The notes below the pieces were generated by a model. That model did no database searches. It had not been told where the DNA came from and worked only from the letters and a program-made list of their open reading frames with translations. A DNA stretch of 64,000 nucleotides from an uncultured Gammaproteobacteria bacterium (GTDB taxonomy: Bacteria > Pseudomonadota > Gammaproteobacteria > UBA9214). This document shows positions 6,897 through 58,945 of this stretch, piece by piece (position 1 is the first letter of the stretch; each line of letters starts with the position of its first letter). A program made the translations under genes and the position numbers. Location: contig CAVVHS010000006.1 in the NCBI GenBank assembly GCA_963748215.1, positions 704,001 to 768,000 of the forward strand, read 5' to 3'.

Positions 6897-9800
6897 TTAC
6901 CAGCCGCAGGTGGTGCCTGTCCTGGCAATCGATACCTCTTCCCACACTGCCTCGGAAACACGCCCCTCGATGAGATGCCGCTTCCACTCTCTACCACGGT
7001 TGGTATTACCGCAGCTCACGTTGCCTTCGTTGCCGTGGCACGCGCGACAGACGGTTGTGGTACCACCGGTGTAGGGGTTGACCGGGTCGGGTACACCCGA
7101 CACGACACCCGCATTGGCCTCGGCATCGTCCATTGCCAGACGCGACACGCGGTTGATCATGGCGTGGATCTGCCACTCTTCATTGTTGGCCGAGATGGCG
7201 CCTGACAAGTTGCCATGGCAGTTCAGACAGACACTGGCACGCGGATCGGCCTCATCCGTGTAGGTGTGGGCCCAGGACACGGCGGCATCAAAGTCATTGA
7301 TCACCGGTACCGCGGGTCCACCATCGACCGGATCCGTGTAGCTCAGACCATCGACCCAGACTGGCACCTGGTCAGCGTTCACATGGGTGTGGCAGGTGGC
7401 ACATTTCAGCGGCCCATGCGAGCCGTCCTGGTTCAGGCCGGCTGCCTGCGCGTACGACGTGTTATCGATGGTCGGGGTCACGGGATAGAGGCCGTGAATC
7501 GACTCATGACAACCCTGGCAGGTGATGTCCTGGTGGCCACGCGAGTAGCGCATCAGGCTGGCCTTGCGCGGATAGTTGAACGGCGGGAACGCATTCACAT
7601 TGCCGCTCTGCTCCGTGTAAGGCGCCTTGTGGCAATCCGCACAGTGTGGCTCACCCGCGCTCAGCCAGTGATCCCGCCCGTCAGACGCCGTGGTGGCCGT
7701 CGAGGTCGAGAACGGAATGGTGAACGCCAGCGAGTTAACCAGCGTTGCCTGGGCCGCCGTTACGCAATCCGGCGTGGTGCAGAAGTCCATGATGTTGGCG
7801 GTGAAGTCGCCATCTGCATCGAAGTTGCCGCAGATGTTGAACACCGGTCCGCCCTCGGCTGAGCAGTCCACCGGACCGACCTGGCCGGGGGTCGAGCAGG
7901 CCTGTCCCGCCGACGGGATCGCCACCTCGATGGTCGCTACATTACCGTCGAAGGTTGGATCAAGCGGCGCCCCGGTGGCAACCGACACCACGTAGTTGCA
8001 GAGCCCTGGATCGCTCTTCCAGATGAAGTGGGTATCATCGGCCGGACGGGTACCCGCACCACTCAACGGCAGGTCGGGATCGATGGCCGGATCCTTGGGG
8101 TCGACCCAGGACTCGAGCTGCGCCAGGGTGGTACCGAGCTGAGTCGCCAGATCGGCCATGTCCACTGCCGCGCGCGGATTCTCACCCGGTGCACAGTCGT
8201 TGTGGACCAGGCTAATGCAGTTCTCGGCCTTCCACATCTGCTGACCGGCCTGGCTGTGACAGTTGGTGCACCAGATACCGCGCATGTCTTCCGTGCCACC
8301 CGGCTCCTGGGACTGGTTACGGAACACGAAATCGGACAGGTACTGACCCACCGCAGTGAGGTGCTCTGGCGTCTCGGCACCGTCGACATCCTTCATCGGG
8401 TTGGAGTGCACGTCACGACCCACGAAGCAACCACCCTGTGCCAACCGGTTGTCGCCGCTGGCCTGGAAGTTGTTGCCGTCCAGGTCGATCGGATAGCCGT
8501 CCATGACACCGTCGGAACGGTGTGCCGGGTGACAACCCTGACAGCCACCATCACGCCCGGTCGCGTCGTTGAAGACGATGTCACCGCCCTCGCTCTGGCT
8601 GCGATGGTTGTGGTGGAGAGCCTGTGAGAGCGCCGGAATCAGGCCGCCCTCGGCACAGCTGGCTGCCCCACCGCAGTTGGTCGACTTGACCACCGCGATC
8701 ACGTTATCAGCATGGCACTTCTGGCAGATGACGCTGTCGTGCCCGATGCGGGTGTTCTGCGGCAGGTCGCACACTTCATCCCCGATACCGGCACAATCCG
8801 CATGGCTGGCACAGGCCGGACCGGTCGGCGCCTTGTTCACCAGGCAGTTGGCCGGCGAGTTGAAGAAAGGCTCGCTCAGACCACCCAGCTCGGTCACCGG
8901 ATTAAACGGCGATCCGGCCGGAATCGCTGCTGCTGCCGGGTAATTGGCCAGGAACTGGGTGCCATGTTGTGTATCGTGGGTCCCCAGGATACTGATGGCT
9001 GCACCCTTCAGGCGCGCATACCAGTCAGAATCACCTCCTGCCACATCCAGGTCGTAGTAGGCCGCCCAGAAATCGTACTCGAGATTGACCAGCACCTCGT
9101 TCGCCGGGATCACGTTCGGGCTGTTGACATTGACATTGCCGAAGGCATCCGTGGGCGGTGCCGAGTGGCAGCGCTCGCAGTTCGGGATGTCGATGGGCGC
9201 ATCACCGAAGCCCTGCACCGGGTGACCCGAGCCATCGAGTACCACGTTCCCCGCGGTGCAGTTACCCGCAGCGTCGCAGACAGCATCGTGCAACTGCGCC
9301 GACATCTGCACATACGGGCGGATGGAGTCTTCGTCCACCAGACCCGGGTCGGCGAAGAAGCCCAGCGTATCCTCGAATGGCGTCAGCGGCAGGCCCAGGG
9401 CCTCCCAGATACGCGGCGAGGTCAGCATGATGGGCAGGTTCTCCACCAGCTTCATCTGGGTGAATACCACCGTACCGGTGTCCTCGGAGAAGGTCATGAA
9501 GGCGTTGTCGTTGAAGACACCGCCCGAGACCGGTCCCATCGGATGACCGCCCGGGCCGTAATTGGTCGGGTAGTCGACATCCAGGCCGAGGCGCAGCTTG
9601 GCGGATTCCAGGCTGGTGCCGGTGGGATTGCTCCCCTCCGTATCGGCGTAAATGTACAGGTGGTTCCACACGGCATTCTGGTAGTTATCCACCGGTACGC
9701 CGAAGGTATTGCCGATATCGCCGTAGTCACCATTGCCCTGCACCACGTTAATGGCTGCACAGGTCAAGGGGTCAAGCGGGTCGGTACACTCAGAGTTACC

Positions 9801-12722
9801 CAGCACAAAGCTCCCATCCGGGTTGCGTGCGGCGGCATCGGCGCGCGTGTTCCACGACAGCAGGGTGTTGCCCTCGACATCGCTGATCAGCGATGTGGTT
9901 TTCAGGTGCGGCGGCAATGTAGCCTGCAGGGCCGGATTACCGATCTGCGGTTTGCCCTGCCCGTCGTTACGCGACTGGGAGTCGTGCCAGTACTTCACCA
10001 CGTACTTCTTGAAGTTGTTGCCCGTGGCATCGACCGCCGGATCACGCACCACCGTCTCACGACCCAGCACGTCGAGGTTGCCGCCATTGTTGGGATCACC
10101 CTCCAGCATGCGTGGGAAGGCATCGACAAAATCAATATCGCGGTACTGATTGTTCGGTGAGCATGGCCCGCTGAAGCAGGGGTTTTGCGCACCATTCAAC
10201 TCCTCCTTTGGATTGCCGATCGCCGGCTTGGCGATCTGCGACACGATGGAGTTGTAGGCCGGCAGCACGCAGCAGTAGGCGAACTCGAAGCCCGTGCAGT
10301 GCATGCCGAGCTCGTAGTTCATCATGAACTTGAAGTCGGTCTGCTTGGGCAGCACGCGCACATTCACCGTGGCGACCGTGGACAGGTTGGTGCCGTCCGA
10401 GGCCTGGTAGGTAAAGGTGTCGTCCAGGTAGGCCGCACCACCCAGTGGTGCGCCGGCCGGCGGCGTGTAGGTGAACGAACCATCCGCGTTCAGGGTTACG
10501 CTACCCTGGGTACCTGTAGTATTAAGACTGACTGCCGTCAGCGGATCAGACTGCTCGTCGAAGTCGTTATACAACACGCCCGACAGGCGTGTAGCCGGCA
10601 CCGTCAGGGCCTGGTTGCGGACCGTGGTGTAGGAATCACCGCGTGCCGTGGGCGCCTGCTGCGCTGCCACGCAGCCTCCGGGCAGATCGACACAGGAAGG
10701 TCCCGGAGCCTGACCAATTTGTGCCTTGGTAAAGGTGAAATCGGTGGGATCCACGATACCGTTGCCGTTTATGTCCCGATCCGGATTGACCGTCCCTACT
10801 GCGGCCTTGATGGATGTGAAATCAGTCGGATCCACGATGCCGTTGTTGTTAAAGTCCGCATCGCAGACATTACCGTACCCGTCAGCGTTGGTGTCGCGCT
10901 GATCGGCGTTGACCTTCTCGATGCAGTTGTCCTGGTTATCCGGGACGCCATCCTGGTCGAAATCACCGGCTACCACCGGCTGAACCGTGATGGTGACGGT
11001 CGCCACATTGCTGTTGTCGGTGCCATCGTTCGCCACGTAGGTGAAGCTGGCATTACCACTGAAGCCCGCGGCCGGTGTGTAGGTGAACGAACCATTGGCA
11101 GCCAGGTTCAATGTGCCACTGGTCGGGCCTGACTGCAGCAGGGCGGTCAGGGTGTCGCCATCGGCGTCGGTGTCATTGCCCAGGACGCCCGGGGCAGGCA
11201 CGATCAGCTGGGTCTGGAACGCGGTACTGTAGCTGTCATTATTGGCTACCGGGGGCGCGTTAGCCGGTGAACCGACCGTGATGGTGACGGTCGCCGTGTT
11301 GCCGTTGACGGTGCCATCATTCGCCGCGTAGGTGAAGCTGGCATTACCACTGAAGCCCGCGGCCGGTGTGTAGGTGAACGAACCATCGGCAGCCAGGTTC
11401 AAGGTACCGCTGGTCGGGCCTGACTGCAGGATGGCCGTCAGCGGATCGCCGTTGTCGTCGGTGTCATTGCCCAGGACGCCCGGGGCAGGCACGGTCAGCG
11501 GGGTCTGGAAGGCCGTGCTGTAGCTGTCGTTATTGGCGACCGGGGGCACGTTGGGCGGATTGCCGACCGTGATGGTGACGGTTGCCGTATTGCCGTTGAC
11601 GGTGCCATCGTTCGCCGCATAGGTGAAGCTGGCAGTACCGGTGAAACCCGCGGCCGGCGTATAGGTGAACGAGCCGTTGGAATTCAGATTCAGGGTGCCG
11701 CTGGTCACGGCAGACTGCAGGACAGCAGTCAGCGGATCACCGTTGGCGTCCGTGTCATTGCCCAGCACACCCGGGGCGGGAACGGTCAGCGGTGTCTGGA
11801 AGGCCGTGCTGTAGCTGTCGTTATTCGCTACCGGGGGCACGTTGGGCGGATTGCCGACCGTGATGGTGACGGTCGCCGTATTGCCGTTGACGGTGCCATC
11901 GTTGGCCGCGTAGGTAAAGGTCGCATTGCCACTGAAACCGGCGGCCGGTGTATAGGTGAACGAGCCAGAAGCACTCAGATTCAATGTGCCACTGGTCGGG
12001 CCAGACTGCAGCACGGCGGTCAACGTATCACCATTGGCGTCCGTGTCATTGCCCAGAACGCCCGGGGCAGGAACGATCAACTGGGTCTGGAAGGCTGTGC
12101 TGTAGGAGTCAGGATTGGCGACCGGTGGCGTATTGGGAGCCGCCGGGTCCACCGCGCCTGAGCCGGGATAGGTGTTGGTGCCTGACGAGACGCAGTTGTT
12201 GCGGCCCCAGACGGGCACCGCGCCCAAGGTCCAGCCTGGCTGGGTGTTGGCATTGATCTCCTGCAGGTTGGTGAAGCCCCCCGCATCGCCATCGGAGTTC
12301 ACCGCTTCAACGGCAGCAATTCGCGCCGCGATTCCACCCGTGGCGCCGTTGCACGCAGCCAGGGCGAAGCCGTAGGGGTTGATGTTCTGGGTGCTCGACC
12401 CGTGGCACAGCTGGCAACTGGCATTGTTGTCCGATGCCGAGCCGGGATAGATGCCCTGCCAGGTACTTAAATAGCCACTGGTGGCATGCGCGGCCGACGC
12501 GGCCAGCAGCAGGCCCAGCAACAGCAGCGACGGGAGCACGAACCCACATGCTCCGGGAGTTGCTGCTGGTTGTATTGTGATTCGTGATTCCGCGCGCACG
12601 TGCGCCGGCGACAGAGAAGAATGTTGGGAAGGCCTGGCAATCAGTGTGCCGATCCTGCGGAGTGTGCTCCAGATGCGACAGCGGAGCGTTCCATCAAGCC
12701 TGTTCGTTGCGGTTGTTTTCAT
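6897..12722 (-). CDS. Giant secreted decaheme cytochrome c with Ig-like (Big_9/cadherin-like) repeats and an internal TSP3-dockerin-like module
   Basis: Ten CxxCH motifs: CQLCH, CERCH, CQKCH, CQGCH, CTNCH, CADCH, CQGCH, CATCH, CLNCH, CRACH. Also an NYELGMHC...VLPAYN motif and five PPVANxDSY-type repeats. Start moved to ATG 12722 because it has an RBS (GGAGGAG) and a sigma-54 promoter lies inside the longer ORF. Confidence 0.88.
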   Translation of the reverse strand: MKTTATNRLDGTLRCRIWSTLRRIGTLIARPSQHSSLSPAHVRAESRITIQPAATPGACGFVLPSLLLLGLLLAASAAHATSGYLSTWQGIYPGSASDNNASCQLCHGSSTQNINPYGFALAACNGATGGIAARIAAVEAVNSDGDAGGFTNLQEINANTQPGWTLGAVPVWGRNNCVSSGTNTYPGSGAVDPAAPNTPPVANPDSYSTAFQTQLIVPAPGVLGNDTDANGDTLTAVLQSGPTSGTLNLSASGSFTYTPAAGFSGNATFTYAANDGTVNGNTATVTITVGNPPNVPPVANNDSYSTAFQTPLTVPAPGVLGNDTDANGDPLTAVLQSAVTSGTLNLNSNGSFTYTPAAGFTGTASFTYAANDGTVNGNTATVTITVGNPPNVPPVANNDSYSTAFQTPLTVPAPGVLGNDTDDNGDPLTAILQSGPTSGTLNLAADGSFTYTPAAGFSGNASFTYAANDGTVNGNTATVTITVGSPANAPPVANNDSYSTAFQTQLIVPAPGVLGNDTDADGDTLTALLQSGPTSGTLNLAANGSFTYTPAAGFSGNASFTYVANDGTDNSNVATVTITVQPVVAGDFDQDGVPDNQDNCIEKVNADQRDTNADGYGNVCDADFNNNGIVDPTDFTSIKAAVGTVNPDRDINGNGIVDPTDFTFTKAQIGQAPGPSCVDLPGGCVAAQQAPTARGDSYTTVRNQALTVPATRLSGVLYNDFDEQSDPLTAVSLNTTGTQGSVTLNADGSFTYTPPAGAPLGGAAYLDDTFTYQASDGTNLSTVATVNVRVLPKQTDFKFMMNYELGMHCTGFEFAYCCVLPAYNSIVSQIAKPAIGNPKEELNGAQNPCFSGPCSPNNQYRDIDFVDAFPRMLEGDPNNGGNLDVLGRETVVRDPAVDATGNNFKKYVVKYWHDSQSRNDGQGKPQIGNPALQATLPPHLKTTSLISDVEGNTLLSWNTRADAAARNPDGSFVLGNSECTDPLDPLTCAAINVVQGNGDYGDIGNTFGVPVDNYQNAVWNHLYIYADTEGSNPTGTSLESAKLRLGLDVDYPTNYGPGGHPMGPVSGGVFNDNAFMTFSEDTGTVVFTQMKLVENLPIMLTSPRIWEALGLPLTPFEDTLGFFADPGLVDEDSIRPYVQMSAQLHDAVCDAAGNCTAGNVVLDGSGHPVQGFGDAPIDIPNCERCHSAPPTDAFGNVNVNSPNVIPANEVLVNLEYDFWAAYYDLDVAGGDSDWYARLKGAAISILGTHDTQHGTQFLANYPAAAAIPAGSPFNPVTELGGLSEPFFNSPANCLVNKAPTGPACASHADCAGIGDEVCDLPQNTRIGHDSVICQKCHADNVIAVVKSTNCGGAASCAEGGLIPALSQALHHNHRSQSEGGDIVFNDATGRDGGCQGCHPAHRSDGVMDGYPIDLDGNNFQASGDNRLAQGGCFVGRDVHSNPMKDVDGAETPEHLTAVGQYLSDFVFRNQSQEPGGTEDMRGIWCTNCHSQAGQQMWKAENCISLVHNDCAPGENPRAAVDMADLATQLGTTLAQLESWVDPKDPAIDPDLPLSGAGTRPADDTHFIWKSDPGLCNYVVSVATGAPLDPTFDGNVATIEVAIPSAGQACSTPGQVGPVDCSAEGGPVFNICGNFDADGDFTANIMDFCTTPDCVTAAQATLVNSLAFTIPFSTSTATTASDGRDHWLSAGEPHCADCHKAPYTEQSGNVNAFPPFNYPRKASLMRYSRGHQDITCQGCHESIHGLYPVTPTIDNTSYAQAAGLNQDGSHGPLKCATCHTHVNADQVPVWVDGLSYTDPVDGGPAVPVINDFDAAVSWAHTYTDEADPRASVCLNCHGNLSGAISANNEEWQIHAMINRVSRLAMDDAEANAGVVSGVPDPVNPYTGGTTTVCRACHGNEGNVSCGNTNRGREWKRHLIEGRVSEAVWEEVSIARTGTTCGW
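10980..12135 (-). repeat. Four tandem ~97-aa Ig-like (Big_9) coding repeats
   Basis: PPVANxDSYSTAFQTxLxVPAPGVLGNDTDxxGDxLTAxLQS...GSFTYTPAAGF...TVTITV occurs four times with near-identical DNA. Confidence 0.85.
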
Positions 12723-14801: not shown

Positions 14802-17800
14802 TCACGAACTGACGCGCCGGTAACGGCGATACAAACCGCCTGCCGCTACCAATAGAGACAGGGGAAACACCGGGTCGAGTGACGTTGTGGCGGTTGCAAC
14901 CAGCGTACAGCCGCCACCCCCACCCCCGGAACCCGCCGGCTGCACCGCCGCGACTGCCACGGCAATACCCACCGGGTCGGCAATCGTGCCAATGGCAGGG
15001 TCGGTATCGAACACCCCGTCATTGTCGGTCAGTGTCAGAGTGAAACTGCGCTGATTCAAGTCGATCAGGGCGTTGTTCACGGTACGCCAGGTGCCACTGA
15101 CATCCAGCTTGCGGATAACCGTGTTGGCGGGCAGCGCCGCACCCGGCGGCAGCTGCACGGTAACGGTGGCCGTATCCTGACCCACCGGAAGCACGACGCG
15201 GTAGCTGTACAGACCCAGCGGATAATCGTACGCCGTATCACCGGTGGGTAAATCCGATTCGACAAACAGCGGCAGTCCCGTGGCGGGGTTTGCTTCTATC
15301 ACAAGCGTTGCACCCGTGATTTCCGACACCTGAACCACCTCGTTCGCGTACTCGTTCACTCCCATCGCCTGGGCAACCCCGGCCGTGACAAAAAAGCTCA
15401 GCATTGCGGCGTCTGTCGCTGCCGTACCGGGCTCAAGCGCATCGATGATCCCGTCGCCATCCGTATCGGTGGGGTTGGCCGGGTCACCGAGTTCCAGCGC
15501 ATCGGTGATACCGTCGCCGTCGGTATCACCGCTCACCACGTTGGGATCCAGCGCGTTGGCAAGAGCCTGTGCATCGCTGATGCCATCACCATTGCTGTCG
15601 CTGTCGTCATCGTTGATGGTCACCGTGGCCGTGCTCACCGCACCCAGGCTGGCGCCGCCGGTAACATTCGACAGACTCAGCGTGAAGCTCTCGCTGGACT
15701 CCGGCACGCTGTCATTCAGGATCGGCACGCTGAACGACTGACTGCTTACCCCGTTGGCAAAGTCCAGTGTCCCGGTGCTGGTCGTGTAGTCGCTGCCGGC
15801 CAGCGCCGTGCCGTTGCCGGTTGCATAGCCAACGCTGACTGCACCCGCGCTGCCGCCCGTGCGCGTCACCGTCACCAGCACGCTCGCACCGTTCTCCGCC
15901 ACACTGTAAGTACCGGTACTGAACTGCACACTCCCCACCGGTAACGGGTCGTCATCGTTGATGGTCACCGTGGCCGTGGTCACGGCACCCAGGCTGGCGC
16001 CGCCGGTAACATTCGACAGACCGAGCGTGAAGCTCTCGCTCGGCTCCGGCACGCTGTCATTCAGGATCGGTACGCTGAACGTCTGGCTGGCGGTCACGCC
16101 GTCGGCAAAGGTCAGCGTCCCGGACCGCGTACTGTAATCACTGCCGGCCAGCGCCGTGCCGTTGCCGGTTGCATAGCCAACGCTGACTGCACCCGCGCTG
16201 CCGCCCGTGCGCGTCACCGTCACCAGCACGCTCGCACCGTTCTCCGCCACACTGTAAGTACCGGTACTGAACTGCACACTCCCCGCCGGCAGCGGGTCGT
16301 CATCGTTGATGGTCACCGTGGCCGTGCTCACGGCACCCAGGCTGGCGCCAGCGGTGGCATTCGACAAACTCAGCGTAAAGCTCTCGCTGGACTCCGGCAC
16401 GCTGTTATTCAGGATCGGTACGCTGAACGACTGGCTGATCACGCCATCGGTGAAAAGCAGCCGCCCGCCCACCGCGCCATAGTCACTGCCCGCGGTGGCC
16501 GTGCCGTCGCTACTTGCATAGTCGACGGTGATGGCACCCGTGCTGCCGCCGGTGCGGAGCACCGTCACCAGCAGAATCGCGCCATTCTCCGCCACGCTGT
16601 AACCGGCGGCGCTGAACTGCACACTGCCCGGCCCCGGTACAGCATCCCCGACACGGACGGGATAAAAGTCATGCAGCGTCTGACTGCGGCCTGTCAGCGT
16701 ATTCTGGCTGGTCACCGCCAGGCGCAGCGTGTAGCTACCCGGCGCGACACTGGTGCTGTCCCAATCGCCGAGCAGCATATTCTCCGCACCGCCCGTGCCG
16801 CTGAGGCCGGTCGGCTGCCAGCTGCCCTGCCGGTCACAGACCAGGAAATCCTCGCCCGGACAGACGTCGATGCGATAGCCGGTCGATACCCGGGCCGGAT
16901 CCCGGCCGTTCACGGTGCTGCCCGACAGCGCCACCACCCCGCTCAGGGTGTCCGTGGCATTGACCGGATTGAGCCGTACCGCCACCGGCGAGTACAGCGG
17001 ATCGCCATACAGAATGCCGCTGTTGTTGGCGGCGGCGAACCATACCGCATCCCCCAGCGGCAGGCCGCGCGTGAAATACACCAGCGGCGCCATGCCGCTC
17101 AGGCAGAACGCACAGCCAGCCGACTGGTGATGGCTCACGCTGCCCCAGAAGGCCACGCCGCCCAGCCGGTCCAGAAACGTCGCCGCATGATCGCCGGCTG
17201 CCACCTGGCGGTGACCCTCGCTGAAGGAGCCGTTGAGCGCCAGCTCCGCGCCCGCGCCCACCTGCTGCACGCTGACCGCGTCGATACCCAGCGCCCCGGC
17301 AAACACCCCGGTGGTTTCGATGCGGAACTTGATGCCGTCGTAACTGGCGGCGGCATGCAGCGCCGGGTCGAGCGGGAACGCAACCTCGACCGGTGTCCAG
17401 CCGGTATTGCCCGGGGCCAGCGTGGCGAGCTCGCGGGTGCCGTAGTCGACCTGGGCGCCGCCCGCCTCGCGCACGAAGAAGCGCACCTGCAGGGTGACGG
17501 GTGTGGCGAGATCGGCCGCCTGGTAGTGCAGGGCGATCCGGTAGGTCTGGGGGTTGCCGGTGTCCAGGGTCTGCGCGGCCAGCGGGAGACGCTGGGCCAG
17601 CACTACCCGGCGCTGGTCGGCACAGGGCAGGCCTGGCGGCGCCGAGAAGTCACTGGCCGGGAAACAGCGCGGCGCGGCCACCTGGTCGGTGTTGCGGAAC
17701 CACAGGCTGAAGCTGTCATCGAAGCCGGTGTCAGTACGCACCTCGGGCAAGGCCAGCTGGTTGACATCACCGTGACCGCCATCGTTCCAGCTGCTGTTGC

Positions 17801-19692: not shown

Positions 19693-20253
19693 TCAGGCAG
19701 CCTTGCGGCGGGCAACACCGACAAGACCCAGCAGGCCGGAACCAAACAGCCATACGGCAGCCGGTACCGGTACCGGGGTTACCTGGACCTGACCGGTGAC
19801 GTAGTCGACGGGAACATTGGCGCCGGCGACAGACCATCCGCCGAAGATATCTGCGAAGGTGATGTCCGTGGCGGATCCATCAGCACCGATGACATTGAAG
19901 CTGATATCAACAATATTGAAGTCCGATCCGAAGAAACCCACGCTGCGTCCAAGGAACACGAAATCCACTGTACCGGCTGCGGCGTTGAGGTCGCTAATAC
20001 TGACCGTATCCCAGTTCGGATCACTCACCACACTACCGGTGTACTGCAGCACGGTTGGGTCCCAGTTAAACGTGAAGGCGGCACCATCCACTGTATCCGT
20101 AAACAGCGTCCCCACAAGGTTCAGAGTCACTGACGGGGCCCCGCCGGTTAAAATCGGGTTGGGTTGTGTCAGCTGCACTGTATTGGCTGCGGCCTGCCCT
20201 GCTACCCCTAACATCACCAGTGAAGTCATGATTATCAAAAGCTTTTTATACAT
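19693..20253 (-). CDS. Cohesin-like domain protein with PEP-CTERM (VPLPA-CTERM) anchor
   Basis: Signal peptide, then a ~135-aa all-beta domain with a cohesin-like pattern (DGAAFTFNWDPTVLQY...AAGTVDF...IVDISFNVIGADGSATDITF...TGQVQV). C-terminus is VPVPAAVWLFGSGLLGLVGVARRK. Confidence 0.75.
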   Translation of the reverse strand: MYKKLLIIMTSLVMLGVAGQAAANTVQLTQPNPILTGGAPSVTLNLVGTLFTDTVDGAAFTFNWDPTVLQYTGSVVSDPNWDTVSISDLNAAAGTVDFVFLGRSVGFFGSDFNIVDISFNVIGADGSATDITFADIFGGWSVAGANVPVDYVTGQVQVTPVPVPAAVWLFGSGLLGLVGVARRKAA

Positions 20254-27466: not shown

Positions 27467-27548
27467 CCCTGCCTGCAGCGCCGTGCCGCACACGGGCCCG
27501 ATAACACAACGTTGCAAAGCTCGAACCATAAACAACTCCGGAAACTCT

Positions 27549-43447: not shown

Positions 43448-43538
43448 CGTTGGGGGACAGATGGAGCGTTTTGGCAAAGATGACGCAACTGGATATTGAT
43501 TGACTAATTGAAGTATGGGAACAGCGGAGGCACAAAAA

Positions 43539-46500: not shown

Positions 46501-46689
46501 ACCCTGCTGAAATCACGCATTGGTGTACCGCCGATCCAGAGTCCTTTGCCTCCAGTCGGTAGCGGGATACTTCAACCCGTCGCGCCGAGTCAGGACCTGA
46601 ACGGTAATGGCATTGTGGATCCGACTGATTTCACCCTGCTGAAATCGCTCATTGGTTCACAACCGGGCCCCTCGGCGTTAGTCCCGTAG
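43539..46689 (+). CDS. mcoA: Multicopper oxidase, McoA/MofA-like candidate Mn(II) oxidase, with TSP3-dockerin-like tail; single frameshift at ~45372
   Basis: Cu motifs THEHNGH and WFHDH lie in ORF 43515-45380; HPVHVH and HCHNTTHEDKAM lie in ORF 45256-46689. Removing one base in CTGGCGCTTCGATGAC joins them as NTLAFDDGRGPK. RBS GGAGG precedes ATG 43539. Confidence 0.75.
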
Positions 46690-46954
46690 GCAAGGGACGT
46701 GCGCAGACCGGCGCTGGTGCAGGTCGATGGCTTGACCTGCACCAGCACGACGGGGCGAAATCATGGGCTGTCAGTGGTAATGGTGCCACTGACAGCACGA
46801 GTGGCACCTGCAAAGAACCGCAGGGGGATGATTGCTCACAGGACCCATACGTCAATGGCAAACCACTCGACATAAATCACAAGATCGTCTTGATATAATG
46901 AATCCCGAGGGTCTGAACTGATCTGTTACCGGTAAGTTTAATATGAGGCTGCTT

Positions 46955-48052
46955 ATGAGTTGTATCCGTTTCACCGCAAACCCTGGGGGCGCTATCGCCG
47001 CCGCTCTCCTGCTCTTTTCCACCCTTTCACTGTTGGCTGCCAATCCAGCCGGCGCGGCGCCGCAGCAGCAGTTTCCCAATGTCCCCCTGACAAACCAGGA
47101 CGGCGAGACGCTGCACTTCTACGATGACGTTATCAAGGGCAAGGTGGTGTCCATTAATTTCATGTTCACGAGTTGTGGAGACTCCTGCCCGCTGGAGACA
47201 GCCAAGCTGCGCAAGGTTCAGCAGCAGCTCGGCGAGCATGCCGGGAAAGACGTCTACATGTATTCCATTACCGTCGACCCCGACCGCGACACGCCGGCGG
47301 CACTCAAGGCGTACATGCAAAAATTCAACATCGGCCCCGGCTGGCAGTTCCTGACGGGAAAGAAGGCAGACATCGATCAGATACGTAAAAGGCTGGGCAT
47401 GTACAGTGAAGAAGCGGATGAGCTCAGCGATCACGCAATCAACTTCGTGCTGGGCAATGAGGCGACCGGACAGTGGTTGAGGCGTACCCCCTTTGATCTG
47501 CCCGAAACACTGGTTTCCGTACTGCTTGGCCGCCTGCAACAGTACCGGCTGGCTTCGTCAGCGGCTGCAGCAAGACCGAGCTATGCGCTGAGCCGCCCCA
47601 TGCCGGCTGCACGCCCGGGTGAGGATCTGTTCAATACGCGCTGCACGGCCTGCCATACCATCGGCCAGGGCGATAAACTGGGCCCGGATCTGCTGGGTGT
47701 TGTCAGTAAACGGGACCGTCAATGGCTGATCCGCTGGCTGCAGGAACCCGATGTGATGCTGAAGGAAAAAGATCCCCTGGCAACAGCGCTCTACAACCAG
47801 TATGGCAAGGTGCCGATGCCGAATGTGAAGCTGACTGACAAGAATGCGCTTGATCTGATCGAGTACATGCAGGCGGAGACCCTGCGTGTGAACGCACTAT
47901 CCGAGGATACGCCCGCGCAAGCAGACAGCCTGGAAAGCATCGACACGACAGAACCGGCAGTCCGCACAGACGGGAGTCCGCCTCCGGGCAACGAGATACC
48001 GCAGGAACAGGCGCGGGCGGATTCCGCACCGGTAAAGGAGATTAGCAATTAA
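46955..48052 (+). CDS. SCO1/SenC copper chaperone fused to cytochrome c, copy 1
   Basis: FTSCGDSCP (CxxxC), SITVDPDRD, conserved His in SDHA, then CTACH...GPDL...MPN. Confidence 0.9.
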   Translation: MSCIRFTANPGGAIAAALLLFSTLSLLAANPAGAAPQQQFPNVPLTNQDGETLHFYDDVIKGKVVSINFMFTSCGDSCPLETAKLRKVQQQLGEHAGKDVYMYSITVDPDRDTPAALKAYMQKFNIGPGWQFLTGKKADIDQIRKRLGMYSEEADELSDHAINFVLGNEATGQWLRRTPFDLPETLVSVLLGRLQQYRLASSAAAARPSYALSRPMPAARPGEDLFNTRCTACHTIGQGDKLGPDLLGVVSKRDRQWLIRWLQEPDVMLKEKDPLATALYNQYGKVPMPNVKLTDKNALDLIEYMQAETLRVNALSEDTPAQADSLESIDTTEPAVRTDGSPPPGNEIPQEQARADSAPVKEISN

Positions 48053-48082: not shown

Positions 48083-48817
48083 ATGAAAAACCGCTCAAAC
48101 AACGCGAGATTAACCACGTCCGTTTTCGCCATGCTTTGCCTGTTACTGCCCGGCGCGGCCCGGGCAATCAGCGTCGGCCAGATCGATAACTTCGAAGACG
48201 GCACGCTTCAGGGCTGGCGGATGGGCATAACCACGGTCACGAAAAGCCATATGGCAAACATCGCCACTGGCGGGCCCGCCGGGACCGGCGACAGCTTCCT
48301 TCAGGTTATCGCGGACGGAACGGCCGTTCAGGGTGGAAGGATGACCTTCTTCAACAAGACCCAGTGGACGGGTAATTACACCGCAGCGGGGATCACTGCC
48401 ATCACCATGGACCTGAAGAATATCAGCTCCAGTGAAGCCCTGAATCTGCGACTGGCGATCGATGGCGGTACCTATACCACCAGCATTGATTTTATCGGGG
48501 GCAAATTTTCCACCGCGGCCAGCATCAGCCTGGACAGCGGCAGTGACTGGACGCGGGTCGTGTTCTCATTGCTGCCCGGCGATCTGATCCCCGTCTGTAG
48601 CCCTGGTCCTATCTGCAGCCTGGGCAACGATGTCCAGGCCACACTGGCCAACGTGCGGGAATTGCGGCTACTGAACAGTACAAACCCCGACTGGAACGGG
48701 CTCCCGGTTGCCGGAAAACTGGGTATCGACAACATCCAGGCGGTACCGCTACCGCCGGCTCTTGCACTGTTCGGTTCGGGACTCGTTGTACTCCTGACAG
48801 GACGGCGCAAACAATAA
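48083..48817 (+). CDS. PEP-CTERM (VPLPA-type) surface protein, family C copy 1
   Basis: Signal peptide; C-terminus VPLPPALALFGSGLVVLLTGRRK. Confidence 0.85.
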   Translation: MKNRSNNARLTTSVFAMLCLLLPGAARAISVGQIDNFEDGTLQGWRMGITTVTKSHMANIATGGPAGTGDSFLQVIADGTAVQGGRMTFFNKTQWTGNYTAAGITAITMDLKNISSSEALNLRLAIDGGTYTTSIDFIGGKFSTAASISLDSGSDWTRVVFSLLPGDLIPVCSPGPICSLGNDVQATLANVRELRLLNSTNPDWNGLPVAGKLGIDNIQAVPLPPALALFGSGLVVLLTGRRKQ

Positions 48818-52323: not shown

Positions 52324-54246
52324 ATGAAGAACATATATAAGATACTTGGCCTGACTGCCTTGTGCATGGGAGCGACAGCACCAGCAAACGCAGCCGTACT
52401 GACCAACGTCGGCGGCGAGGTCGAACGCATCATCGTCGACAATCCCACCGATCGCTGGTCACGCGGCACTATCGTGGTCAGCGGACGCAACATCATCATC
52501 CCGGCCAACATGGTCATCGACCTGCCGGCCAACCGCCTGACGCTGCAGGAACTGTTTGTCAATGCGCCTTCGGCCTGCGCCGCCGACGTCAACCCCGCCG
52601 ACGGCATCCCGGACGAGACCGGACTGGCCAAGGGCGACCGCTGTAACAAAAGCGGCACCGGCGCCGCGGTTACCATGCTGGGTAACAAGACCAATGCGGG
52701 CGACCTGATTGCCGGCGATGTCTTCCTGGAGAAAGCGGCGGAAATCGTGTCCGGTGTCGTGAACTTCGTCAACTACGACGAAGGTTATTTCCGCGTCAAC
52801 GGCATAGACGGCGACGACACCACTGGCGCCATGATCCGCGTCAATGATCCGGAAGGACGGCATACGCACCAGGTCGGTGCGGGCTGTGCCGGCAGCGGAC
52901 CGAACTGCAGCGCCGATACCCGCTACGGGGTGGACCCGGACAACTACACCTTCACCGCCAGCACCGGTTACCCGATGTGTATCCCCAGCACAGTGCCACG
53001 CGGTCCCTTCGACTTCGATGTGAACCGTAATGGCACCATTGAACCCGGTCTACCTGAAACTGGCATCACAGCCGTCGCCGCAGCCGGTGGCACGGGCGAT
53101 GCCCTGTGCCCTCAGACCAATCGGCCCGGGACTTTTGTACCTGGTGACTCACGGCTGTTTGCCCCCGTCAAGATCGGTGATCACCTGACGGCGGAAGGTA
53201 ACTTCGAGACCATCGGCGGCGTGACCTTCCTGTCGGCGCACACCGTGGGCATCAGTGTGGGCCTGTCCACCACCGCCGATCCCTTCCAGCCTGACTATAT
53301 GGTCTTCGATGAAGTCGGTTGGGATATTCCCGGCTTCCAGAACCAGCGCGTGCGCGACCTGCTGATTGCCTTCGGCAGCCTGGGAACGAGCCACATCGAT
53401 ATCTTTGGCCTGTACTACGACCCGGCGAACAACGCGGTCGAGGAACTGGTATTCGCTACCACCTTCGGCTGTGACGTGGCGGCCGGTGCAGGTACCTGCA
53501 CCGCCCAGGGCCTGGTGGGCAATCCCAACGTGTTCAAGATTGTGCATGACGTGGACTTCATCAATGGCGTACCGATTCAGGCCAGACGCTCCCCCTGTCA
53601 GCACCTGAATGCGGCCTATGCCAACGGCGGTATACCTATATTTAATCCCGATGGCACCACCACCTTTATCACCGCAGACCCCAAGGGCCGCTGCACGGGC
53701 GCCATCACCCTGGCGGATGAGTTTGAAGTCCTGAGCCCGCCATCGCGTGACCTCATCGGGCGCAGCCGTCACAAGCATGAGCTGCACCCCAGCGTTGTCA
53801 CGCTGGACTTCCACGGCACACCCTCGCAGAACGGCGAATACCTGAACCCGGTCGGGCTCGGTCATCCGGAGTTTGTCGAGATCAACCTGAACGCGCTGGA
53901 CACGGCCTACATCTTTGCCGGCGCACCCTGGAACCTGGACCGTCGTCTGGGACCGGGTGGCGGCTGCGACGGTGAGCCGAGCTGTGAAACGGCTATAGCA
54001 ATCGGCGATGCCAGCATGGTCCTGAATCCGTTCCCGTTCTCCGATCTGGATCCGGGTACCCAGGCGGGCCCACCAGGACTTGGTGGGGTACCGATCGTGA
54101 CGCCGCTGCATAACACGCAACGCGGACGCACCCTGTCGTACTGGCCACTGGCTGGCGAGGAATTGCCCTGGCCGCCGACCGATCCGGTCGCCCAGGGCAT
54201 CGTGCCCACCGACCATGTCACTAATCTTCTGTGCACAGCACCGTAG
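52324..54246 (+). CDS. Secreted Cys-containing hypothetical protein, family A copy 1 (no dockerin)
   Basis: RBS GAGGA, signal peptide, GGEVERIIVDNP.DRWSRG core shared with the next two genes. Confidence 0.85.
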   Translation: MKNIYKILGLTALCMGATAPANAAVLTNVGGEVERIIVDNPTDRWSRGTIVVSGRNIIIPANMVIDLPANRLTLQELFVNAPSACAADVNPADGIPDETGLAKGDRCNKSGTGAAVTMLGNKTNAGDLIAGDVFLEKAAEIVSGVVNFVNYDEGYFRVNGIDGDDTTGAMIRVNDPEGRHTHQVGAGCAGSGPNCSADTRYGVDPDNYTFTASTGYPMCIPSTVPRGPFDFDVNRNGTIEPGLPETGITAVAAAGGTGDALCPQTNRPGTFVPGDSRLFAPVKIGDHLTAEGNFETIGGVTFLSAHTVGISVGLSTTADPFQPDYMVFDEVGWDIPGFQNQRVRDLLIAFGSLGTSHIDIFGLYYDPANNAVEELVFATTFGCDVAAGAGTCTAQGLVGNPNVFKIVHDVDFINGVPIQARRSPCQHLNAAYANGGIPIFNPDGTTTFITADPKGRCTGAITLADEFEVLSPPSRDLIGRSRHKHELHPSVVTLDFHGTPSQNGEYLNPVGLGHPEFVEINLNALDTAYIFAGAPWNLDRRLGPGGGCDGEPSCETAIAIGDASMVLNPFPFSDLDPGTQAGPPGLGGVPIVTPLHNTQRGRTLSYWPLAGEELPWPPTDPVAQGIVPTDHVTNLLCTAP

Positions 54247-54257
54247 TGGAGAAAATC

Positions 54258-56519
54258 ATGAAAACTATAGACAAGATAAAAGCCAATACGTGTGTATCCG
54301 GATTACCGGAGTTACCCGTGTTCAGGAAGACAGCGGTTGGTGCTGCGATACTCGGTGCACTGATCATGATGACGCACAGTTCCATAGCATCAGCAGCGGT
54401 GAGTATCCCTATCGGTGGTGAAGTCGAACGCATCATCGTCGATAATCCCACCGACCGCTGGTCGCGTGGCACCATGGTGGTGGGTGGCGCCAATGTCATC
54501 ATTCCGGCCAATATGGTCATCGACCTGCCGGCCAATCGGCTGACGCTGCAGGAATTATTCGTCAATGCCCCTTCGGCCTGCGCCGCCATCGACGCCAATG
54601 GCGACAGCATTCCGGATCAGACCGGTCTGGCCAAGGCCGACAGCTGCAACGGCAGCTTTACCGGGGCCACGGTGACGATGCTCGCCAATCGCACCAATAA
54701 CGGTGACCTCGTCGCGGGTGAGATAATGCTCGAGAAGGCCACCGAGCTCGTCAGTGGCATCGTGACCTTCATCAATTACAATGATGGCTACTTCCGCGTC
54801 GACGGCATCCCGGGTGATGACACCACGGGTGCGATGGTACGTGTCAACGACCCGGAAGGGCGTTTTACGCACCAGGCTGGCGCGGGCTGTGCGGGCAGCG
54901 GACCGAACTGCAGCGCCGATACGCGCTACGGAGTGGATCCGGACAACTACACCTTCACCGCCAGCACCGGCTACCCGATGTGTATCCCCAGCACAGTGCC
55001 ACGCGGTCCCTTCGACTTTGACATCAATCGCGATGGTGACACGGCCGACGCCGGTGAAACCGGTATCGTGGCAGTGGCCACAGGTACGGGTACGGGCGAT
55101 GCCCTGTGTCCCACGGGCAACCGGGGCGTCGATCCGGTTGGCGATTCGAGACTGTTCGCTCCGATCCAGCTGAACGATCATGTCAATGCAGATGGCAACT
55201 TCGAAACCATCGACGGCGTGACCTTCCTGTCGGCGCACACCGTGGGTGTCAGCGTGGGTCTGACCACGGATGACACGGCCTTCCAGCCGGACTACATGAT
55301 CTTTGATGAAGTGGGTTGGGACATACCGGGTTTCCAGAACCAGCGCGTCCGCGACCTGCTGATCGCCTTCGGCACACTGGGAACAACCCAGATCGATGTC
55401 TTTGGTCTCTATTACGACCCGGCGAACAACGCCGTCGAGGAACTGGTGTTTGCCACCACCTTCGGTTGTGAAGTGGCGGCCGGTGCGGGTACCTGCACCA
55501 ACCAGGGCATTGTCGGCAACACCGCGGTGTACAAGATCGTGCACGATGTGGACTTCATCAATGGCGTACCGATTGGTGCGCGTCAGTCTCCCTGCGCGCA
55601 TCTGAATGCGGCCTATACCAACGGCGGTATCCCGGATGTCAACGGCACCTTCGTAACCGTTGATCCCAAGGGTCGCTGTACGGGCGCCATTACCCTGGCG
55701 GATGAGTTTGAAGTCCTGAGCCCGCCATCGCGTGACCTCATCGGACGCAGCCGCCACAAGCATGCGCTGGATCCGAGCGTGGTCACGCTGGACTTCCACG
55801 CACAGCCCTCGCAGAACGGTGAATATCTGAACCCGGTCGGGCTCGGTCATCCGGAGTTTGTCGAGATCAACCTGAACGCGCTGCAGACACCGTACATCTT
55901 CTCAGGCGCGCCCTGGAACCTGGACCGTCGTCTGGGACCGGGTGGCGGCTGCGACGGTGAGACGAGCTGTGAAACGGCTATCGCAATCGGCGATGCCAGC
56001 ATGGTCCTGAATCCGTTCCCGTTCTCCGATCTGGATCCGGGCACCCAGGCAGGTCCTGCAGGAATTGGCGGGGTACCGATTGTAACGCCGCTGCATAACA
56101 CGCAACGCGGACGGACCCTGTCGTACTGGCCATTGGCTGGCGAGGAATTGCCCTGGCCACCTACCGACCCGGCCGCGCAGGGCATTACACCGACCCAGCA
56201 TGCCGGCCTGATCTGCACGCTGCTCAGCGGCATCGATACGGACAGTGATACCGTGGACGATGCCATCGACAACTGCACACTGGTTGCCAACGCCGACCAG
56301 CGTGATACCAACGGCGATGGTTTCGGCAATGTCTGCGATGCGGACTTTAACAACAATGGCATCGTGGACCCGACCGATTTCACATCCATCAAGGCTGCAA
56401 TAGGCACGGTCAACCCGGATCGTGACCTGAATGGCAACGGTATTGTGGATCCAACCGATTTCACCTTTACCAAGGCCCATATCGGGCAGGCTCCGGGTCC
56501 CTCGGGACTCAACCCGTAG
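54258..56519 (+). CDS. Family A copy 2 with TSP3-dockerin-like tail
   Basis: RBS GGAG before ATG 54258; paralogous core; duplicated EF-hand tail ending PGPSGLNP. Confidence 0.85.
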   Translation: MKTIDKIKANTCVSGLPELPVFRKTAVGAAILGALIMMTHSSIASAAVSIPIGGEVERIIVDNPTDRWSRGTMVVGGANVIIPANMVIDLPANRLTLQELFVNAPSACAAIDANGDSIPDQTGLAKADSCNGSFTGATVTMLANRTNNGDLVAGEIMLEKATELVSGIVTFINYNDGYFRVDGIPGDDTTGAMVRVNDPEGRFTHQAGAGCAGSGPNCSADTRYGVDPDNYTFTASTGYPMCIPSTVPRGPFDFDINRDGDTADAGETGIVAVATGTGTGDALCPTGNRGVDPVGDSRLFAPIQLNDHVNADGNFETIDGVTFLSAHTVGVSVGLTTDDTAFQPDYMIFDEVGWDIPGFQNQRVRDLLIAFGTLGTTQIDVFGLYYDPANNAVEELVFATTFGCEVAAGAGTCTNQGIVGNTAVYKIVHDVDFINGVPIGARQSPCAHLNAAYTNGGIPDVNGTFVTVDPKGRCTGAITLADEFEVLSPPSRDLIGRSRHKHALDPSVVTLDFHAQPSQNGEYLNPVGLGHPEFVEINLNALQTPYIFSGAPWNLDRRLGPGGGCDGETSCETAIAIGDASMVLNPFPFSDLDPGTQAGPAGIGGVPIVTPLHNTQRGRTLSYWPLAGEELPWPPTDPAAQGITPTQHAGLICTLLSGIDTDSDTVDDAIDNCTLVANADQRDTNGDGFGNVCDADFNNNGIVDPTDFTSIKAAIGTVNPDRDLNGNGIVDPTDFTFTKAHIGQAPGPSGLNP

Positions 56520-56778
56520 CCGCGGTCAGACAGCACAGGTGCAGGTCGATGGTGGAGATTGATCCATCGACCTGCACCATCCGATGGGGAACAACACCCG
56601 GCGATCCAGAAACAGCCTGACCGGGAGAGACAAGACCCAAAACACACTTTTTTGTGCCTGATAGCCACTCTCTTTCGTCATCTCATTGCCTTATGTGACT
56701 CCACCGCAGCCCGGTGAGAAATACGCGCTGGTATTCCATCGACGTCAACCCCGAACGCGACACACCGTTGGCGCTGCC

Positions 56779-58945
56779 ATGCTCAGCATACTGATGCTAG
56801 CGGCCTACAGTGGCTAGACATAGGCTGCGATGCAGAACAACCTCGGCGGTGAAGTCGAACGCATTATTGTCGACAACCCGCTCGATCGCTGGTCGCGCGG
56901 CACCATCGTGGTATCCGGCCAGAACATCATCGTTCCACGTAACTTTGTGATTGATCTGCCTGCCAACCGCCAGACCATTCAGGAACTGTTCACCAACAGG
57001 CCGTCGGCCTGCCCGCCCGGCGAGACCGGGCTGGCCAAGGCCGACAGCTGCAACCACAGCTTTACCGGCGCCACAGCGACTATCCTGGCCAACAAGACCA
57101 ATAATGGTGATGTCATCGCCGGTGAAATCATGCTCGAAAAGGCCACTGAGCTGGTCAGCGGTATTGTGTCGTTCATCAATTACGATGACGGCTACTTCCG
57201 TGTCGACGGCATCGTCGGCGATGACACAACTGGCGCAATGGTGCGCGTGAATGACCCGGAAGGGCGTTTCACCCACCAGCAGGGCGCGGGCTGTCTCGGC
57301 AGCGGGCCGAACTGCAGTGCCGACGTGCGCTACGGCGTGGACCCGGATAACTATACATTCACGGCTGCCACCGGCTACCCGATGTGTATCCCGAGCACGG
57401 TGGCGCGCGGTCCGTTTGACTTCGACACCAACCGCAACGGCGTGATTGATGCTGGAGAATCTGGCCTCACGGCACAGGCCGCAGCAAACGGCACGGGCGA
57501 TATACTGTGTCCACAGACCAACCGCGGCGTCGACCCTGTCGGCGATTCGCGGCTGTTCGCGCCGATCCAGGTGGGTGACCACGTCAACGCCGAGGGTAAC
57601 TTCGAATCCATCGACGGCGTGACCTTCCTGTCGTCGCATACCGTGGGCGTCAGCGTGGGTCTGACCACGGATGACACCGCCTTCCAGCCCGACTACATGA
57701 TCTTCGACGAAGTCGGCTGGGACGTGCCGGGTTTCCAGAACCAGCGCGTGCGCGACCTGTTCATCTCATTCGGCACCCTGGGCACAACCAGCATTGACAT
57801 CTTCGGGCTTTATTACGACCCGGCGAACAACGCCGTCGAAGAACTGGTCATCGCGACCACAGCCGGTTGTGAAATAGCGGCCGGTGCGGGAACCTGTAGC
57901 AACGTGGCCCTGGTCGGCAACACTGCGGTGTTCAAGATCGTGCACGACGTGGACTTTCTCGCCGGCACGGATCCCAGACGTTCTCCCTGTGCGCATCTGC
58001 AGGCGGCCTACGCCAACGGCGGTATTCCACAGGCCGACCACTCAATCGATCTCGCGGATCCCAAGGGCCGTTGCCGACACCATTTGCCGGGACCGGTGTC
58101 ACGGCCCAGGAGTTCGAAGTGCTGAGCCCGCCGACGCGCGACATCATCGGCCGCAGCCGGCACAAGCATGCACTCGATCCGAGCGTGGTCACACTGGATT
58201 TCCACGCTACACCTGCGCAGAACGGTGAGTACCTGAACCCTACCGGCATCGGTCACCCGGAATTCGTCGAGATTAACCTGGCAGCGTTGCAGACGCCGTT
58301 AATTTTACCGGCGAACCGTGGAACATGGACCGGCGACTGGGACCGGGTGGCGGTTGTGACGGTGAGCCGGAATGCGAGACCGATATTTCTGTCGCTACCG
58401 GGATTCCCATAGGCGATCCGAGCATGAACCTGGACCCGTTCCCGTTCTCCGACCTGGATCCGGGAACCCAGAACAATGCGGCTGCCGCTCCTACTCCGGT
58501 AGTATCGCGGCTGGGTCATACCACGCAGCGTGGACGCACCCTGTCTCACTGGCCGCTCTTAGGTCAGGAAATGGCCTGGCCACCGGCCGATCCAGCGGCG
58601 CAGGGCATTACAGCGACCCAGCACGTCAACCTCCAGTGTGCACTGCTCAGCGGCATCGATTCGGACGGGGATACCATCGACGATGCCATCGACAACTGCA
58701 CCCTGGTTGCCAATCCGAACCAGCGTGATACCAACGGCGATGGGTTCGGCAACATGTGCGATGCGGATTTCAACAACAACGGTTTGGTTGATCCGAGTGA
58801 CTTCTCGTTAATCAAGTCGTTGTTTGGCTCCACCACATCACCGGACCAGGATCTGAACGGCAACGGCATCGTGGATCCAAGCGATTTCTCCAAAGAGAAA
58901 TCACTCTTTGCAACCCAACCGGGCCCCTCGGCACTAGCCCCGTAG
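56779..58945 (+). pseudogene. Family A copy 3 with dockerin-like tail, disrupted
   Basis: In-frame TAG stops at 56815 and 56821 in the signal peptide, plus frameshifts at ~58074 and ~58303. The pieces are collinear with copy 2. Confidence 0.8.

Follow-up and report, generated by a model that had tools for sequence, protein, structure and literature searches.

In Clostridium thermocellum, OlpA and OlpC act as single-cohesin surface anchors to which dockerin-bearing enzymes are bound singly, according to the sections of the study cited here (PMC4045903). Here we describe a 64,000-nucleotide stretch of DNA from an uncultured gammaproteobacterium (positions 704,001 to 768,000 of contig CAVVHS010000006.1, assembly GCA_963748215.1; the whole stretch is referred to as the window) that encodes a single cohesin with an exosortase-type sorting tail amid genes for copper and heme enzymes that carry dockerins. 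As with OlpA and OlpC, there is one type I-like cohesin that is predicted to be anchored at the surface, and the structures 3ul4 (Z 15.3) and 4dh2 (Z 15.1) match the model of this protein, which is encoded at 19693-20253. The differences lie in the anchor, which belongs to a diderm and is an exosortase VPLPA-CTERM tail rather than SLH; in the cargo, which consists of copper and heme proteins; and in the dockerin, which has a TSP3 repeat fused to it and is shorter. In addition, no scaffoldin was found in the genome.

A second system with which the locus can be compared is that of Pseudomonas putida GB-1, in which manganese is oxidized by MnxG and McoA, SCO genes lie in the mnxG and mcoA operons, promoters are of the sigma-54 type, a special type II secretion system (T2SS; Xcm) is present and activity is found on the outer surface, as set out in the cited parts of a 2026 review (PMC13689576). 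Those parts place Mn-oxidase activity on the outer surface of Gram-negative oxidizers; they describe export and name no tether. The locus described here likewise has two SCO genes in the operon of its MnxG-type oxidase and a further SCO gene downstream of a second oxidase; it also has sigma-54-type sites, and the genome encodes an accessory T2SS in addition to a general one. It departs from GB-1 in having oxidases with dockerins at their ends and in the addition of multiheme cytochromes, a di-heme peroxidase and cohesins.

Precedents outside the cellulosome, as far as the cited excerpts go, are an Archaeoglobus pair, anaerobic methanotrophic (ANME) archaea with partner sulfate-reducing bacteria, and the planctomycete 'planctosome' (PMC6461901, PMC9012536, PMC10553843). 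The Archaeoglobus cohesin 2xdh matches our model at Z 15.2, and the planctosome model, in the excerpt concerned (PMC6461901), also includes TSP3 repeats and peptidase cargo; in contrast to the present locus, these excerpts name no PEP-CTERM anchor, metal-oxidase cargo or T2SS for any of the three. PEP-CTERM/exosortase proteins such as floc-associated PepA have a sorting tail of the same class; the source, in the portion used, describes no binding partner for them, whereas here the body of the protein is a cohesin. Dockerin/cohesin-like motifs are reported from Saccharophagus (PMC2386152, in part), and Geobacter genes with fibronectin, dockerin and laccase domains are mentioned in passing (PMC6199725, in part). 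In literature searched mostly without subscription journals and without supplements, we found no paper on the pairing of a cohesin-PEP-CTERM protein with dockerins, and none that joins dockerins, a Gram-negative surface and manganese oxidation.

We propose, with a probability of about 0.7, that the locus encodes a one-to-one cohesin-dockerin display system in a diderm, loaded mainly with MnxG- and McoA-type metal-oxidation enzymes. In our reading it works like anchoring by OlpA and OlpC and is not a cellulosome. (An earlier, sequence-only reading of the window had instead proposed a cellulosome-like complex of redox enzymes with a T2SS of its own.) What is new here is that a whole Mn-oxidase-type island is fitted with the tag, together with evidence for a swap of specificity.

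A single cohesin with an exosortase-type tail

The product of the 19693-20253 gene begins with a signal peptide, continues with a domain of 135 residues (mature cohesin, 19780-20184) and closes with a VPLPA-CTERM tail (TIGR03370) that scores above the NCBIfam cut-off. With an exosortase gene present on contig C4, the protein has the features of a PEP-CTERM/exosortase substrate, as predicted from its sequence. (Here G000 denotes this genome, C-numbers its contigs, and other G- and L-numbers the compared genomes and loci.) The Pfam Cohesin match falls just under threshold (E 6e-5, 23.7 bits against a cut-off of 24.1). An AlphaFold2 model built with a 68-row alignment reached a predicted local distance difference test score (pLDDT) of 95, compared with 33 when the alignment was left out. 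The best Foldseek matches of the model are type I cohesins, with 4ums on top (E 3e-8, TM 0.76). An independent structural scan of 48,161 chains gave Z 15.7 with a root-mean-square deviation of 2.2 over 127 aligned residues; every one of ranks 1-20 was a cohesin-type entry (Z 15.7-11.2), whereas the best chain of any other kind reached Z 10.3. The modeled domain, a nine-stranded beta-sandwich, is a cohesin by fold, in agreement with the sequence-only reading, which had described the gene as a single cohesin-like domain with an exosortase-type anchor. Residues 52-184 also match NF033554 (PepA-type) weakly (E 6e-7, below cut-off).

A divergent cohesin-like PEP-CTERM family (L046, L047, L049 and L162) occupies another conserved gene neighborhood that is without the dockerin module; its member in this genome, G000:C6:115249-116066, is broken.

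One dockerin module in ten proteins

Seven genes from six families in the window had been noted to carry a shared module, and this was borne out by a profile and by alignments, which place a TSP3-plus-dockerin module in all seven. The module comprises one TSP3 repeat (PF02412), a duplicated 22-residue loop-helix motif and a PGPS end; in family A copy 2 it is 79 residues long. When the whole genome was searched with the module profile, 10 full copies were recovered (domain E <=6e-33; the next-best gene reached only E 5e-4). Seven of these lie in the window and three outside it: at the end of the MnxG-type oxidase, at the N-terminus of a third multicopper oxidase, and in a beta-lactamase-fold/LamG protein on contig C8. 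Each of the ten cargo proteins has one dockerin.

Single copies of the module match Pfam Dockerin_1 at E 3e-5 to 4.5e-3, three of the seven above the curated cut-off. When a 148-row module profile was compared with PDB sequences, 22 dockerin-containing chains ranked on top (best E 1e-12), with calmodulin-type EF hands below them. In the alignments both repeats have D/N at loop positions 1, 3, 5, 9 and 12 and variable residues at 10/11, as in type I-like dockerins, and DP[TS]DF is found in 10/10 copies around the positions that set specificity in clostridial dockerins, under what we take to be the standard numbering of those positions and sites. Judged by these profiles and alignments, the tails are dockerins, as the first reading had it. 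(Note that a module search among 1.8 billion representatives was dominated by TSP3-repeat proteins.)

The module DNA of family A copy 2 and that of family B copy 2 are identical at 234 of 237 bases. The near-identity spans 43147-43430 and 56268-56550, covering the module and about 40 bases beyond the stop codon, which suggests that a cassette was exchanged recently. A second dockerin-like type, distinct from this one, occurs at G000:C2:114952-118146, C7:362768-364429, C7:420540-420959 and C3:123318-123761, in one case within an RHS-repeat protein; no cohesin of a type matching it was found in the genome.

Few candidate anchors for many cargo proteins

A paralog of the cohesin, 72% identical, is encoded at C6:804763-805371. 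Because cohesin profiles that keep the tail also pick up PEP-CTERM tails, a tail-free profile was used, with no filters, to count cohesin genes across the genome, and it returned two single-cohesin genes, one broken gene and no more. No multi-cohesin scaffoldin was found in the genome, which is 95% complete; a very divergent cohesin type might escape the search. That no multi-cohesin scaffold was found in the genome argues for one-to-one display rather than a cellulosome-like complex. Since the ten cargo proteins share one recognition code, they would be expected to compete for the same anchors.

These counts bear directly on the 'oxidosome' of the sequence-only reading, in which several redox enzymes would sit in one defined complex for electron hand-over. 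That idea is consistent with ten cargo proteins sharing one code and lying mostly in one island, with cohesin-plus-dockerin or two-cohesin proteins in other genomes (L201, L206), and with the cooperation of MnxG and McoA suggested for P. putida in the cited part of PMC13689576. With so few cohesin genes, one dockerin per cargo protein and the same code on non-redox cargo, however, we consider it quite improbable here.

Cohesins and modules occur together and side by side

The pairing of cohesin and module was followed in 54 genomes of the same family, 400 genomes of the same class and 74 module-centered loci. In the class sample, the cohesin was found in 17 of the 21 module-bearing genomes and in 13 of the 379 module-less ones, one of these 13 (G341) being a match to the tail only (the class-wide cohesin profile included the tail). 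Fisher's test gave p 2e-18, or 2e-15 when three genomes that had seeded both profiles were removed; further seeded genomes are possible in this test, and kin genomes in it are not independent. In 15 of the 17 class genomes having both, module and cohesin lay on one contig and no more than 10 kb apart. Among the family genomes, 14 had the module, 10 the cohesin and 9 both (cohesin in 9/14 with the module versus 1/40 without). Several of these genomes had seeded the profiles, and for the unseeded ones the counts were 4/8 versus 0/39.

A scan of GTDB contigs confirmed at least 569 stretches and returned the 74 loci, which come from Methylomonas, Rheinheimera, Aquabacterium, Marinagarivorans, Myxococcota, Acidobacteriota and many uncultured gammaproteobacteria. 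Cultured carriers are Methylomonas rivi WSC-6, M. subterranea SURF-2 and Aquabacterium lacunae KMB7. A cohesin was present in 23 of the loci, in each case within 615 bp of a module gene; a later profile raised the count to 24. Genomes that bear the tail usually have a cohesin, mostly adjacent, and on this point, as on the fold, the outcome favored the sequence-only reading. The pairing is well supported by this comparison of genome sequences.

Both partners change together in a related island

The recognition residues vary from one genome to another and, inside any single genome, are fairly uniform. Across 29 neighboring pairs, cohesin and dockerin identities correlated with r 0.62, and across 24 dereplicated pairs with r 0.33 (p <=2e-4, also when permuted within coarse taxon groups).

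A stronger case than this correlation comes from discordance between the plug-and-socket types and the ancestry of the islands that carry them. The island of G066 is a close copy of that of G000 (GspD/E/F/G 92-95%, cargo cores mostly 74-90%), yet its dockerins show D[AS]FD[IL] in 10 of 14 cases and are 43-46% identical to those of G000. The cohesin at the same position is of another type (E 1.3 against the G000 cohesin, 1e-31 against P0044) and is frameshifted in that assembly. G066 also retains one DPSD-type module, and another of its contigs has a cohesin 46% identical to that of G000. In contrast, the G067 island is more distant (T2SS 39-69%) yet has DPxD[FY] in 8 of 10 modules (54-69% identity) and cohesins 55-60% identical to those of G000. 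G002 has several dockerin and cohesin types, with one matched set in common with G007. Gene conversion can homogenize tails but leaves the matching change of cohesin in G066 unexplained. On these sequences the partners appear to follow a co-varying recognition code, to which shared inheritance may contribute.

The G066 switch is also informative with regard to a simpler explanation, namely that the tail serves solely in Ca binding, mineral binding or T2SS targeting and that the cohesin-fold protein shares the island with it as an unrelated matrix protein. The exchange of the dockerin for other tails among McoA-like relatives and the lack of a cohesin match in some module-bearing genomes would fit such an explanation; the joint switch of both partners, the tight co-occurrence and adjacency across unrelated cargo and taxa, and the failure to find the island T2SS in 10 of the 14 module-bearing family genomes speak against it, and we regard it as unlikely.

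A candidate route to the cell surface

In the display system that we propose, Sec would export both cargo and cohesin, whose signal peptides can be read from the sequence. Copper and heme would be loaded in the periplasm by way of the SCO, cytochrome-maturation and peptidyl-prolyl isomerase (PPIase) genes, and the island T2SS would carry the folded enzymes out, by analogy with the Pseudomonas Xcm system. The exosortase would process the VPLPA-CTERM tail and so place the cohesin on the outer surface or in exopolysaccharide, where each cargo protein would plug its Ca-bound dockerin into one cohesin. Mixtures of enzymes would be set by the density of anchors and not by a scaffold. When the cohesin was co-folded with the module and two Ca ions, the score was 0.21 against a mark of 0.32, which counts neither way on binding.

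The step across the outer membrane is where another arrangement could be imagined: the pair might bind in the periplasm or in a shed matrix, with uncleaved or released cohesin holding or chaperoning the enzymes and no display on the cell. The enzymes do require periplasmic cofactor loading, and in the portions cited PEP-CTERM proteins are tied to the floc matrix with a probable exit route from the periplasm (PMC9850573). Since the island contains a T2SS, since a T2SS serves surface delivery in related C-terminal sorting systems (PMC11980579, as excerpted), and since cargo elsewhere are typical extracellular enzymes and adhesins, this arrangement seems to us very unlikely.

Several observations nevertheless weigh against one-to-one display at the surface. 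That PEP-CTERM proteins end up on the surface is itself, for the most part, an inference, to judge from the cited parts of the literature (PMC11980579, PMC9850573). The two dockerin repeats are joined by a linker that lacks 5-9 residues relative to most clostridial dockerins, and the uniformity of the module within one genome can stem from gene conversion. The correlation between partners alone is no proof of contact because adjacent genes are co-inherited. In 50 of the 74 loci no cohesin was found in the fetched flank, and a cohesin match is missing from 4 of the 21 module-bearing class genomes and from 5 of the 14 in the family. G016, G017, G051 and G060 gave no cohesin match, G017 being 91% complete with 6 module matches. 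(Note that such negatives from genome searches are soft, because the weak neighboring cohesin of G047, E 8e-4, was missed by the genome search and found by a local run.) Across the 74 loci, moreover, cohesins were not significantly closer to module genes than were 7 other PEP-CTERM genes (p 0.07). Finally, the MnxG-type oxidase scores below the NF041487 cut-off (3100 bits) as pieces; its being in pieces accounts for this, and an intact relative is also below, at 2183/3100 bits.

If the proposed system holds, the island offers a concrete, testable tether for surface Mn oxidases. With the tag in about 5% of the sampled genomes of the same class (21/400), cultured Methylomonas and Aquabacterium strains among them, it suggests that diderms have a general equivalent of the cohesin anchoring seen in Gram-positives, and it would give a subset of PEP-CTERM proteins a function. 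Natural plug-socket codes that differ between genomes could supply orthogonal tags for the display of folded, cofactor-loaded enzymes on Gram-negative cells.

Cargo range and the role of the T2SS

The window had been read as a redox-specific system, a claim that did not hold. Pfam was run on 124 of the 127 distinct module-bearing frames of the 74 loci (three of fewer than 150 residues were dropped). Of these 124, 22 were redox proteins (multiheme cytochrome, multicopper oxidase, di-heme peroxidase or GSDH), 11 were peptidases and 6 were glycoside hydrolases or lyases, the rest being propellers, adhesin domains and unlabeled frames. In G000 itself the subtilase and the beta-lactamase-fold protein carry the tag. 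No catalytic glycoside hydrolase (GH) family, such as a cellulosome would include, was found among the G000 cargo scanned with Pfam (for the C-terminal piece of MnxG, NCBIfam alone was used); the accessory domains of the C8 cargo are GH115_C-like and LamG. MnxG was found in one of the 21 module-bearing class genomes, G000. Among the matches listed for the McoA-like oxidase (the query being an intact homolog 68% identical to it), 63 of the 120 closest relatives have a dockerin, and more distant ones have Ig/cadherin, RTX-type or other tails. Because cargo vary, and because relatives swap tails or lack the module, the module is best seen as a swappable retention module.

The Methylomonas loci L116, L121, L122, L124 and L137 have the tag on GH5, GH8, GH114, BNR-repeat and DUF1800 proteins, possibly a small carbohydrate-active display set of methanotrophs. 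L051-L053 (G019:C22) have the same island frame (T2SS, TIGR03790, cohesin, subtilase, multiheme cytochrome and PPIase) with other small multicopper oxidases.

The T2SS cluster lies in the middle of the region, as had been noted; the idea that it is dedicated to docking fared less well. Island-type GspD was found in 7 of the 54 family genomes, four with the module (of 14 such genomes) and three without, and two of these three have mnxG. In G043, mnxG, its accessory operon and the island-type T2SS share one contig, with no module or cohesin match. In these genome sequences the island T2SS looks like an oxidase exporter to which the docking pair is an addition. A second T2SS is encoded on contig C8.

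The metal-oxidase island

Features of the window are listed in Table 1. The seven module genes named in the sequence-only reading lie within 6897..58945, the extent that it gave; the island itself reaches beyond those limits, covering about C6:699-805 kb and so running past the window. It holds nine-heme and ten-heme cytochromes, a di-heme peroxidase, three multicopper oxidases, a full T2SS and two cohesins, with SCO-type, PPIase and cytochrome genes as accessories.

Table 1. Coordinates of features in the window (position 1 is its first nucleotide)
Feature	Position	Strand	Remark
Nine-heme c-type cytochrome with PKD/Ig domains, 5' part, no dockerin	1..2070, runs off window	-	9 CxxCH in full frame
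PpiC-type PPIase	5090..6703	-	After decaheme gene here and in relatives
Decaheme cytochrome c, five Big_9 domains, internal TSP3-dockerin	6897..12722	-	10 CxxCH, Pfam; first Met 12722
Module 1, internal to decaheme cytochrome	10695..10931	-	
TIGR03790-like protein, Calx-beta domains, JDVT-CTERM tail	14802..19019	-	Recurs beside cohesin in relatives
Single cohesin, signal peptide, VPLPA-CTERM (exosortase) tail	19693..20253	-	Proposed anchor
Subtilase, three Calx-beta domains, C-terminal TSP3-dockerin	21025..23934	-	Directly upstream of cohesin gene
Module in subtilase	21040-21306	-	C-terminal
Accessory T2SS cluster	24296..35831	gspE, F, G, H, I, J, K +; C-like, M, L -; gspD +	
Perfect sigma-54-type -24/-12 site	36852..36866	+	Upstream of peroxidase-oxidase run
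Di-heme peroxidase (bCcP/MauG superfamily), TSP3 repeats and dockerin	37076..39949	+	Pfam, NCBIfam
Module in di-heme peroxidase	39698-39934	+	
Family B copy 1, no module	40100..41512	+	
Family B copy 2 with dockerin	41533..43398	+	
Module in family B copy 2	43147-43383	+	
McoA-like multicopper oxidase with dockerin, one frameshift	43515..46689	+	Four Cu-ligand motifs across both halves
Module in McoA-like oxidase	46372-46674	+	
SCO1/SenC-cytochrome c fusion	46943..48052	+	Second copy 59087-60187
Non-cohesin PEP-CTERM protein, conserved after oxidase	48083..48817	+	Second copy 60215-60982; remnant ~50449-51198
Family A copy 1, no module	52324..54246	+	
Family A copy 2 with dockerin	54231..56519	+	
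Module in family A copy 2	56268-56504	+	
Family A copy 3 with dockerin, two frameshifts	56758..58945	+	
Module in family A copy 3	58691-58930	+	
MnxG-type multicopper oxidase, 5' part	61553..64000	+	Continues to G000:C6:772206; same dockerin at end

The MnxG-type oxidase covers the whole NF041487 model (positions 1-1894) in four pieces (1136, 223, 526 and 370 bits), and its gene is frameshifted in this assembly; its best PDB match is Bacillus MnxG 9bxa (E 8e-38). The gene lies in an operon with SCO1/SenC genes and near an accessory T2SS, the context of MnxG, and is followed by genes for a beta-propeller, a PPIase, two SCO-type proteins and a cytochrome c-binding protein fusion. We favor Mn(II), at slightly better than even odds, as the likeliest substrate of this enzyme. 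(Note that the label 'McoA-like' reflects only similar size and a downstream SCO gene.) Three exact sigma-54-type sites (36852, 36318 and 51480) lie ahead of cargo runs, where 0.21 were expected and none of 100 shuffles did as well, given what we take to be the -24/-12 consensus. For families A and B, ESM Atlas returned only unnamed or uninformative clusters.

The McoA-like gene is broken at about 45372-45376; homologs align through the break at 64-69%, and two short-read contigs across it have one gap each, whose position was not displayed. Because dsrA too is broken in this assembly, the frameshift is probably an assembly indel. Family A copy 3 has two breaks that short-read contigs of two studies span gap-free (X5 the first break only), and since these contigs carry the same two frameshifts, the copy is probably a real pseudogene.

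The genome encodes RuBisCO and dsrA, its named relatives include Thiogranum sp., and the five best-matching read runs are sediment or marine metagenomes from two studies, from which we infer that the host is a sulfur-oxidizing sediment gammaproteobacterium. Only diverged relatives in RNA run X6 match the island, which makes that run uninformative on expression here. In such a sulfur-oxidizing autotroph, Mn oxidases, di-heme peroxidase and decaheme cytochrome might be displayed densely together on exosortase-anchored cohesins, with electrons from Mn(II) or another extracellular donor passing between tethered enzymes into the cell. This would be a scaffold-free redox array at the surface, whose swappable code would prevent neighboring species from taking one another's enzymes; we put it forward as a speculation with the odds well against it.

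With regard to the multiheme cytochromes, no PDB sequence match at E 0.1 was found for the decaheme domain or for the C-terminal part of the nine-heme protein, and a Pfam MtrC II/IV match to an island multiheme cytochrome is weak and below cut-off. For an OmcZ-type reading of the cytochrome, subtilase and PPIase genes, the PDB sequence search likewise gave no match. Decaheme paralogs at C7:41530-46974 and C8:214531-218593 are each followed by a PPIase gene and have no module, the C8 copy being heavily frameshifted. Between the decaheme and TIGR03790-like genes, 13641-14604 holds fragmented frames resembling a SCO-type gene (with a His-rich N-terminus) and a periplasmic binding protein. There are two copies of the TIGR03790-like gene (14802-19019 and G000:C6:799424-802657, 95-98% identity), with a cohesin gene near each; the gene also stands beside a cohesin in G019, G049, G066 and G067, and one G066 copy bears a dockerin.

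Short repeated elements fill 49296-50623, just upstream of the decayed PEP-CTERM gene copy; with about 290 BLAST matches genome-wide and very high contig depth, they resemble miniature inverted-repeat transposable elements or repetitive extragenic palindromic elements. Finally, downstream of the nine-heme cytochrome and a TlpA-like gene lies a gene for a 447-residue protein with a C-terminal Phe and no Pfam or NCBIfam match (L002:15689-17029, that is, G000:C6:699689-701029), which is possibly the outer-membrane barrel of a porin-cytochrome conduit.

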